Positions 44,276 to 44,947 of a stretch of 47,785 bases of DNA are shown here, in pieces (positions within the stretch are counted from its first letter, which is position 1; each line of letters opens with the position of its first letter). This DNA is from a virus (taxonomy: Duplodnaviria; Heunggongvirae; Uroviricota; Caudoviricetes): the IMG/VR virus record IMGVR_UViG_2529292853_000006; one strand, 5' to 3'. Both the position numbers and the translations under genes were made by a program. The notes under the pieces are model-generated. The model did no database searches. It saw nothing but the letters and a program-made list of their open reading frames with translations, and was not told where the DNA came from.

Positions 44276-44300
44276 AACAAAAAGGGGCGATTAAGCCCCT
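44276..44300 (-). terminator. intrinsic terminator of the hicAB operon
   Basis: AGGGGC-uuaauc-GCCCCU hairpin with the hicB stop codon in the loop, followed by UUUUUGUU. Confidence 0.55.
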
Positions 44301-44638
44301 GCGCGATGATTACCGACTTCTTTTTCCAGCGCCTTATTGACAAAGGCATTCAGCGACAAATCTTCTTCCATCGCCATTTCAGCGACCCGGCGATGCAGCT
44401 CTGGATCAAGCCTGACGTTAAACACACCTTTAAAGGGCGTGTCAGGCTCCTTTCCGTCCTCCACACAGGACTGTAAATACAAATCAACCGATGTTTTAAA
44501 TTCCCGTTCCAGGTCAGCTAATGTTTTTGCCTCATAAGTCACCAGATCACGAATAAATGCCAGCTTTCCATACAGGATATTATTTTCAAAATCCGGCTCA
44601 ACCGTACCTAAATATCCTTTATATTTTAAATGTTTCAT
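44291..44638 (-). CDS. hicB: HicB antitoxin
   Basis: 115 aa; C-terminal ribbon-helix-helix-like segment; 4-nt overlap with hicA. Confidence 0.8.
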   Translation of the reverse strand: MKHLKYKGYLGTVEPDFENNILYGKLAFIRDLVTYEAKTLADLEREFKTSVDLYLQSCVEDGKEPDTPFKGVFNVRLDPELHRRVAEMAMEEDLSLNAFVNKALEKEVGNHRAGA

Positions 44639-44883
44639 AAAGCCCCAGCCTCGTTCAAGTTCTGTTTAATAGTTTTCAGCGTTCCACCTTTAATATAACT
44701 TTCTGGATGTGGGCAATGCATTAATATTGTGTGATTAATTTCAGCATTGAAAAATCGCACTCTTGATCCCTGCATGTCTTTTTTGACATATCCTAGAGAA
44801 GAAAATAAAACAACGAGTTCATCCCATTCAAACGTTTTTTTACTGTTTAAAAATTTTGCCAGTAGCTTATCTGCTTTCCCCAT
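44635..44883 (-). CDS. hicA: HicA mRNA-interferase toxin
   Basis: 82 aa; GS.V.F...H.PHP...GTL..IKQ motif pattern typical of HicA. Confidence 0.8.
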   Translation of the reverse strand: MGKADKLLAKFLNSKKTFEWDELVVLFSSLGYVKKDMQGSRVRFFNAEINHTILMHCPHPESYIKGGTLKTIKQNLNEAGAL

Positions 44884-44918
44884 ACGCTATAATCCCATCC
44901 CTTGCCAACATGCAACTA

Positions 44919-44947
44919 ATTATAGTTACAAGTGACATTATTGTCAA
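44919..44947 (-). promoter_or_regulatory. perfect consensus sigma70 promoter TTGACA-17-TATAAT driving hicAB
   Basis: Seen directly on the minus strand; -10 ends 36 nt upstream of the hicA ATG; palindrome TGACAataaTGTCA overlaps the -35. Confidence 0.65.

Follow-up and report, generated by a model that had tools for sequence, protein, structure and literature searches.

Plasmid-borne hicAB toxin-antitoxin (TA) pairs have been divided into two types: HicA^T B, found on pHNSHP45, with separated open reading frames (ORFs) and an internal terminator, and HicA^O B, found on the IncX4 plasmids pJIE143 and p14EC007a, with overlapping ORFs and without an internal terminator (Lin et al, NAR 2025; PMC11878559). 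The HicA of the HicA^O B type (p14EC007a pair) is toxic in Escherichia coli K-12 and is completely neutralised by HicB. In this type the hicA and hicB mRNA levels are similar and hicA mRNA does not exceed the purA reference, whereas HicA^T B shows a ~10-fold excess (PMC11878559). Among more distant systems, the main operator of Yersinia pestis HicB3 and the operator of Burkholderia pseudomallei HicB both overlap the -10 hexamer of their promoters (PMC11594946). Here, we analysed a hicAB locus on the minus strand of the 47,785-nt IMG/VR record IMGVR_UViG_2529292853_000006. This whole stretch, hereafter called the window, is an enterotoxigenic E. coli (ETEC) virulence plasmid. Most probably, the locus is an intact, self-contained type II TA cassette of ~670 bp, in which HicB represses a very strong promoter by covering its -10 hexamer. 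This reading is based on the genes and their predicted folds, on the motifs of promoter and terminator, and on the conservation of the operator, all of which are described below; the coordinates of all features are collected in Table 1.

Both proteins matched their Pfam families above the curated cut-offs, HicA with 38.5 bits over residues 20-80 (PF07927, HicA_toxin; cut-off 27) and HicB with 71 bits (PF05534, HicB; cut-off 21). In addition, a stretch of 951 bases around the module matched four ETEC plasmids at 100% identity (strains 90-9281, E7476, WS3294A, and TW14425), on which RefSeq annotates HicA and HicB family proteins. The hicAB pair named in an initial annotation, which had been made from the sequence alone, is thus confirmed. 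The stop codon of hicA and the start codon of hicB share 4 nt (ATGA). The AlphaFold2 model of HicA (predicted local distance difference test, pLDDT, 95) showed an alpha-beta-beta-beta-alpha fold like that of a double-stranded RNA-binding domain (dsRBD), and the best PDB folds were 1WHZ and the B. pseudomallei HicA structures 6G26 and 4C26 (probability 1.00, target-normalised TM-score 0.64-0.73). HicB combines an N-terminal HicB (partial RNase H-like) fold with a C-terminal ribbon-helix-helix (RHH) DNA-binding domain, and the predicted folds of both proteins agree with solved HicA and HicB structures. Single-sequence searches of the PDB returned no match for HicA and only a marginal RHH match for HicB; B. 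pseudomallei HicA was reached only with a profile built from clade members. NCBIfam gave no match for HicA and only a sub-threshold YlcI/YnfO match for HicB, and an Rfam search over 43900-45700 returned nothing credible (best E-values 0.32 and 0.96, far below the gathering scores). We conclude that the locus is a hicAB type II TA operon.

Within the plasmid-borne pairs, the locus belongs to the HicA^O B subfamily: its ORFs overlap by 4 nt, the operon contains no terminator-like site, and its sequence is IncX4-like. The arrangement of HicA^T B, in which a 24-bp gap with a G/C-rich hairpin terminator lies upstream of hicB, was not found, as the ORFs of the window overlap. HicB is 97.4% identical to the protein of many IncI2 plasmids and 95.7% identical to that of 33-kb IncX4 mcr-1 plasmids and of pCROD2, HicA is 93% identical to IncX4 HicA, and the nucleotide identity to an IncX4 plasmid is 87.6% over 44279-44949. 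Of 5426 complete E. coli genomes, 555 had matches to the module, nearly all on plasmids, as did 1080 plasmids of PLSDB (1044 of them conjugative); the RefSeq HicA/HicB annotation already stands on several hundred plasmids. The gene pair is therefore not new, since it is annotated already and a near-identical copy has been tested. We also considered identity with the HicAB pair of pHNSHP45, which was rejected because for HicA the BLASTP similarity spanned just 17 residues, and no significant match was obtained for HicB.

A promoter scan upstream of hicA gave 12/12 matches to the sigma-70 consensus (TTGACA, a 17-nt spacer, and TATAAT), exactly as the initial annotation had read it. The 47.8-kb window holds one such 12/12 promoter, whereas 0.04 would be expected by shuffling. 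The -35 hexamer is identical in the IncI2, IncX4, pCROD2, and other ETEC copies and in the copy of locus L007, and the ETEC, IncI2, IncX4, and pCROD2 copies all retain both hexamers at a distance of 17 nt, so that the consensus promoter is conserved and not accidental. The distance of 36 nt given earlier between the -10 and the hicA ATG holds as a coordinate difference (44919 to 44883), with 35 bases lying between the two. Transcription would start near 44912. We also considered whether hicB has a promoter of its own within the operon, like the K-12 system of E. coli, and rejected this because the scan showed no promoter-like site inside hicA.

The -10 hexamer is enclosed by the palindrome TGTAACTAtaatTAGTTGCA, whose right arm covers the expected start site; the core of this palindrome, GTAACT-N6-AGTTGC, lies at 44912-44929. 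It was found by a custom script, whereas a repeat search with a 6-nt seed missed both this palindrome and a shorter one over the -35 hexamer, since their exact arms are shorter than the seed. We aligned the upstream regions of the ETEC copy, the IncI2 copy, and two IncX4 copies, and then of three more E. coli plasmids. Every one of these copies retains both hexamers, their 17-nt distance, and the 21-nt block TGTAACTATAATTAGTTGCAT, which was identical in the IncI2 and IncX4 copies although the synonymous divergence (dS) is ~0.5. At this dS, ~36% of neutral sites are expected to differ between the IncX4 and ETEC copies, and by our own arithmetic the neutral probability of the 27 unchanged positions (6 of the -35 and 21 of the block) is ~5e-6.

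For a more distant comparison we used 20 loci from other species, whose HicB relatives are 41-95% identical, and later four further loci. A palindrome with the same arms was found upstream of the operon in almost all of these loci, in about a dozen distant lineages. Written as GYAACT-N6/7-AGTTRC, the motif occurs once in the window (0.025 expected) and a single time in each homologous locus, where it precedes the hicA start by 31-48 nt; ~0.03 matches are expected in all the DNA searched. The lineages include Erwinia, Photorhabdus, Salmonella, Pantoea, Methylobacter, Halioglobus, Limnohabitans/Comamonadaceae, other Burkholderiales, and gammaproteobacterial metagenome-assembled genomes. The arms vary in a way that preserves the palindrome (GTAACT..AGTTAC versus GCAACT..AGTTGC), and the central 6-7 bases are free. 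Enterobacterial -35 and -10 hexamers stand at the same registers in Photorhabdus (TTGACT/TATTGT and TTGATT/TATCAT), Erwinia (TTGACA/TAATAT), and Salmonella (TTGACC/TATACT). The motif also stands beside hicB where an intact hicA is missing. In two Oceanospirillum loci (L021 and L025, 1428-1446) it lies upstream of hicB with no detectable hicA within 1.5 kb, and in Photorhabdus noenieputensis (L011, 1415-1432) it is retained while hicA is internally deleted. The RHH beta-strand motif of HicB, (G-x-)F-N-V-R, which is predicted to read the DNA, is nearly invariant in the HicB proteins of these loci. Taken together, the conservation of the motif, its presence beside hicB without hicA, and the invariant RHH strand point to HicB as the reader of the palindrome. 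The conserved palindrome around the -10 is thus probably the HicB operator, in place of the site over the -35 that the initial annotation had chosen. As a separate observation, the Oceanospirillum HicB proteins carry C-terminal extensions of ~70 residues.

The operon ends in a terminator-like hairpin with a 6-bp stem (5 G-C pairs) and a 6-nt loop, AGGGGC (44300-44295)-ttaatc-GCCCCT (44288-44283), followed by TTTTTGTT, with TTTTGTT running down to 44276. This fits the pattern of an intrinsic terminator, and the hicB stop codon TAA (44293-44291) sits in the loop, as had been noted before. The hairpin, of modest stability, is kept in IncX4 with one G-U change.

Several observations weigh against an intact cassette that is repressed at the -10. 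The palindrome TGTAACTAtaatTAGTTGCA has one mismatch in the window (TGTAACT versus AGTTGCA), and the 21-nt block holds both the -10 and the start site, so that its conservation among the E. coli plasmids could partly reflect promoter function. The terminator hairpin is short and weak, and in a 51-nt context it folds no better than shuffled sequence (z = -0.87). HicA has no G-S-H motif, as Arg41 occupies the position of the B. pseudomallei catalytic His24 in a profile alignment. Compared with the IncI2 copy (L002 8268-8516), the ETEC hicA carries 5 non-synonymous and 2 synonymous changes, giving a ratio of non-synonymous to synonymous divergence (dN/dS) of 0.65, and one of these changes, R57C, adjoins the conserved His56; the toxicity of this copy may perhaps be attenuated. 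Finally, HicA^O B gives just a slight advantage in plasmid competition (PMC11878559), and a role in plasmid maintenance was dismissed for the IncX4 pair (Bustamante & Iredell 2019, as reported in the 2024 review PMC11594946). If the first of these points is carried to its end, the block around the -10 would be conserved only as a promoter or start-site element, or as a site for a host factor, and HicB would act elsewhere or not at all; in the E. coli plasmid copies the block does coincide with the -10 and the predicted +1. However, distant homologues keep the GYAACT/AGTTRC arms while the central bases, at the place of the -10, vary freely (for example gtatcgt, ggaattt, and attcctc), the arm spacing shifts from N6 to N7, the motif accompanies hicB genes that are without hicA, and the DNA-reading RHH strand is conserved in parallel, all of which make this explanation very unlikely. 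The initial annotation had placed HicB on a different palindrome, TGACAataaTGTCA, which is indeed present at 44946-44933 and overlaps the -35. Its right arm reads TGCCA in ETEC LSN03 (99.2% identical), CGCTA in IncI2, CGCCA in pNMBU-W12E19_01, and TGCCA or TGCTA in IncX4, and the palindrome is absent from the more distant homologues examined. Since the right arm is complementary only in the lineage of the window, and the left arm is merely part of the -35 hexamer, this palindrome provides no evidence of an operator. By our own arithmetic, ~0.5 palindromes with 5-bp arms are expected per 60-nt region (loops 0-8), or one in about every second such region, so that TGACAataaTGTCA is not significant alone, and as a palindrome it is unrelated to the conserved half-sites. 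Nevertheless, a second site is conceivable, given that the promoter of Y. pestis HicB3 lies between two operators (PMC11594946). Moreover, the right arm in the window creates TGTCACT abutting the half-site TGTAACT, possibly a lineage-specific extra half-site, and a Holophagaceae homologue (L020) has GTCACT as the left arm of its operator. On balance, we regard repression by HicB through TGACAataaTGTCA as quite unlikely. A Fur- or LexA-type box at TGACAataaTGTCA was also considered, and by eye no convincing match was seen.

The remaining rival reading concerns the state of the cassette, which could be a decaying passenger: structurally intact, with a weakened toxin, and retained only through the remnant bounded by insertion sequences (IS) in which it lies. 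Between the IncX4 and the ETEC/IncI2 copies, at the dS of ~0.5 given above, dN/dS is 0.03-0.07 (0.07 for hicA versus IncX4), which indicates that both genes are under strong purifying selection between those copies. The picture differs in the ETEC lineage, where HicA has acquired E36D, R57C, A71T, K77N, and V81A relative to IncI2. Beside the dN/dS of 0.65 for hicA, hicB reaches 0.28 in the same comparison, while IncI2 versus IncX4 hicA gives 0.03, suggesting that selection on the toxin in the ETEC lineage may be relaxed or altered. Decay would also be in keeping with the surroundings, 1128 bp of leftover backbone flanked by IS91 and IS1 among many IS fragments, and with the fate of the pair elsewhere: hicA and the promoter are gone from IncI2 plasmids of the pHNSHP45 type, hicA is degenerate in Avibacterium and Acinetobacter, and many truncated versions of the proteins are found in the database. 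Against it, both ORFs are full length and keep every residue that is invariant in the family (HicA G39, S40, R41, F44, H56, P58, H59, and P60 and the HicB F-N-V-R motif); promoter, operator, and terminator are intact; and at least four ETEC plasmids carry the sequence with 100% identity. Position 57 of HicA, furthermore, varies naturally, with Cys also in Pantoea. We therefore consider a decaying passenger unlikely, and continue with the intact cassette repressed at the -10.

The HicA of this cassette belongs to a clade that differs from characterised toxins in its candidate catalytic residues. The catalytic histidine of the G-S-H motif is His24 in B. pseudomallei, His23 in E. coli, and His28 in Y. 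pestis. The clade has G-S-R in 210 of ~255 aligned members, and position 41 may also be Ala, Gly, or Lys. In contrast, His56 and the P-H-P that follows it (H-x-P-H-P motif) are almost invariant, and the sole two members with His at position 41 are without His56. Judged from strand register only, residues 41 and 56 should be cross-strand neighbours in the model, where strands 41-46 and 51-56 form a hairpin. The catalytic histidine may thus have moved from position 41 to His56 in this clade, and we found no mention of a relocated HicA histidine in the searchable literature. The orthologue with 93% identity is nevertheless toxic (PMC11878559).

Between the -35 and the operator block lies an 11-nt stretch that is the sole unconstrained part of the promoter. 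It shows 5 differences between ETEC and IncI2 despite a coding dS of 0.04 (chance probability ~4e-5), and the variants of related plasmids form a stepwise series, mainly of C/T changes. This excess may mark a local hotspot or a patch of recombination, or it may reflect tuning of the promoter. In the lineage of the window, the spacer yields both the TGACAataaTGTCA palindrome and a GTCACT half-site-like repeat adjoining the operator.

With regard to the genomic context, an IS91-family transposase (PF04986/PF14319) lies on one flank of the module and IS1 on the other, and the position between these two elements given by the initial annotation is borne out. The neighbouring "disrupted int", however, has to be corrected: 46872-47141 is what remains of an IS3-family transposase, namely its tail with the rve_3/rve_2 integrase core, among several IS remnants in this region, and not a site-specific integrase or a recombinase of an integrative element. 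The stabilising or defensive role suggested at the same time also finds little backing. The discarded maintenance role and the slight competitive advantage cited above make a stabilising role doubtful, and the published data argue against a large stabilising effect; as for defence, no PADLOC model matched HicA, HicB, or either of the two ORFs upstream. With IncI2 backbones the window has 1128 bp in common (44252-45379, 96.9% identity), and on the ETEC plasmid this remnant lies near the etpBA adhesin genes. Homology to IncX4 is limited to 44279-44949, that is, from the -35 to the terminator, and the flanks are unrelated; therefore, a discrete cassette appears to have moved between backbones. 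Both the IncX4 and the IncI2 cassettes lie near relaxase genes.

Some further observations were made in and around the shared backbone. On the mcr-1 reference plasmid pHNSHP45 (L003 11537-12308, corresponding to window 44256-45379) we found a decayed copy of the cassette, with deletions of window 44660-44945, exactly hicA and its promoter, and of 62 bp within hicB, truncating it after residue 81; this 81-residue remnant is common to many IncI2 plasmids. The unrelated HicA^T B pair of pHNSHP45 lies ~800 bp from the decayed copy. Upstream of the module in the window, the hairpin that follows the 44-aa ORF would shield the hicAB promoter against transcription coming from further upstream. The gene for WP_000729511.1 has 90% DNA identity to an IncX4 gene, and a similar-sized gene occupies the same IncI2 position. 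The sequence TTTACAGTGT recurs 14 nt beyond the palindrome TTTACAcTGTAAA, and the IncI2 copy keeps a palindrome there (TTTACgttGTAAA). On a Salmonella enterica chromosome (L032 1145-1300), a gene for a 51-aa PaaA2-family (ParE-antitoxin-like) protein overlaps the hicB end, with the same promoter and operator layout as in the window, which hints at a three-gene arrangement.

Table 1. Features of the hicAB cassette and its surroundings in the window, with the promoter spacers of related plasmids.
Feature	Coordinates	Strand	Remarks
-35 hexamer TTGACA	44947-44942	minus	6/6 consensus
-10 hexamer TATAAT	44924-44919	minus	6/6 consensus, within the proposed operator
Proposed HicB operator TGTAACTAtaatTAGTTGCA	44911..44930	minus	TGTAACTA-taat-TAGTTGCA; 8-4-8, one mismatch
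Palindrome TGACAataaTGTCA	44933..44946	minus	TGACA-ataa-TGTCA; perfect only in the plasmid lineage of the window
Variable part of promoter spacer, window	44931..44941	minus	11 nt, ATAATGTCACT
Same spacer, ETEC LSN03			ACAATGCCACT; 99.2% identical
Same spacer, pNMBU-W12E19_01			ACAACGCCATT
Same spacer, IncI2			ACAACGCTATT
Same spacer, IncX4			AAAATGCCATG and AAAATGCTATG
Shine-Dalgarno-like purine-rich stretch	44893..44903	minus	AAGGGATGGGA, read from sequence; predicted 5' leader ~28 nt
hicA	44883..44635	minus	82-aa HicA-family toxin (GSR / HxPHP clade); RefSeq WP_000513531.1
hicB	44638..44291	minus	115-aa antitoxin; N-terminal HicB fold and C-terminal RHH domain
Intrinsic-terminator-like hairpin and T-tract	44276..44300	minus
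Palindrome TTTACAcTGTAAA	45063-45075	minus	perfect 6-1-6; ~120 nt upstream of the -35
Terminator-like hairpin	45112-45134	minus	strong, 10-bp stem; 10 nt past the end of the 44-aa ORF
44-aa ORF	45144-45278	minus	hypothetical on pHNSHP45; no Pfam or PADLOC match
103-aa ORF WP_000729511.1	45348-45659	minus	no Pfam or PADLOC match

From these observations we propose the following course of events. The cassette would have been brought into the ETEC virulence plasmid on a 1.1-kb IncI2-like backbone fragment that now lies between IS elements. RNA polymerase with sigma-70 would initiate at the perfect consensus promoter and produce a single mRNA encoding HicA and then HicB, whose ATGA overlap suggests translational coupling, and transcription would end at the hairpin containing the hicB stop codon. 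HicA is presumably a small mRNA interferase of the dsRBD fold that arrests growth, and the N-terminal domain of HicB would bind and neutralise it. The RHH domain of HicB, in turn, is predicted to bind GTAACT-N6-AGTTGC over the -10 and the start site and so to shut the promoter by negative autoregulation. Surplus HicA would be expected to release HicB from the operator, by analogy with the HicAB systems of E. coli and B. pseudomallei. Negative autoregulation lets a strong promoter settle quickly at its set point, and without the repressor such a promoter fires fully. Tight autorepression would accordingly keep steady-state expression low and allow an immediate burst where HicB is absent, for instance in a new host, and the low hicA mRNA of the orthologue fits tight repression of a strong promoter. 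As the strong promoter would be autoregulated and the cassette lies near relaxase genes in IncX4 and IncI2, such a burst when a new host is entered is plausible.

As a gene pair the locus is routine, being annotated in RefSeq and belonging to a subfamily tested on mcr-1 IncX4 and IncI2 plasmids, and our results leave the general understanding of TA systems unchanged. What they add is regulatory: the repressor site of a widespread plasmid TA system can be predicted with good confidence, and an operator enclosing the -10 would explain how a maximal promoter can coexist with low orthologue hicA mRNA. The Arg-for-His swap, for which a conserved His on the adjacent strand may compensate, offers a minor but testable point on HicA catalysis. 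More tentatively, these elements may be joined into three linked claims, which we regard as possible rather than probable. The H. influenzae-type HicAB clade to which the cassette belongs would have an operator code of its own, GYAACT-N6/7-AGTTRC around the -10, spanning from enterobacterial plasmids to Burkholderiales and Methylococcales; the catalytic His of its toxin would have shifted from the G-S-H position (Arg41) to the cross-strand His56; and its version on E. coli plasmids would travel as a discrete ~670-bp cassette from the -35 to the terminator, in which the 11-nt spacer alone evolves fast and may tune the promoter or add a half-site.

Compared with known systems, the locus is closest to the IncX4 HicA^O B pairs of pJIE143 and p14EC007a, with which it shares the gene pair, the 4-nt overlap, the lack of an internal terminator, the -35, the -10 and their 17-nt spacing, the 21-nt operator block, and the terminator type. 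It differs from them in the 11-nt spacer, in the 5' leader (8 extra nt before the ATG), and in six amino acids per protein; moreover, the IncX4 pair sits beside relaxase genes of a small resistance plasmid, whereas the window copy lies in an IS-bounded IncI2-like fragment. With the HicA^T B pair of pHNSHP45 it has in common the family names, the toxin-first order, the plasmid group (IncI2), and an RHH domain in HicB. The pHNSHP45 proteins, however, are 60 and 145 aa long, their genes lie 24 bp apart with an internal terminator in the gap that skews the toxin:antitoxin ratio, and their HicA has a canonical SSH catalytic motif. The founding hic locus, Haemophilus influenzae hicAB, encodes a HicB (Q9LA69) with 62% identity across 94% of the length, which also belongs to PF05534, but the locus is chromosomal. 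E. coli K-12 hicAB is likewise a toxin-first operon that is autorepressed by HicB and derepressed by excess HicA; its HicB, in contrast, has a helix-turn-helix domain instead of RHH, and it is transcribed from two promoters, P1 (CRP/Sxy-dependent) and P2, where the scan of the window shows a single consensus promoter. B. pseudomallei HicAB and Y. pestis HicA3B3 have longer HicB proteins without detectable sequence similarity to that of the window, their toxins use the GSH histidine (His24 and His28, respectively) where the window HicA has Arg41, and the Y. pestis system has two operators. Nevertheless, both share with the locus the HicA fold and a HicB made of a toxin-binding N-terminal domain and an RHH domain, and in both of them autorepression acts through a palindromic operator overlapping the -10, like the operator proposed here.

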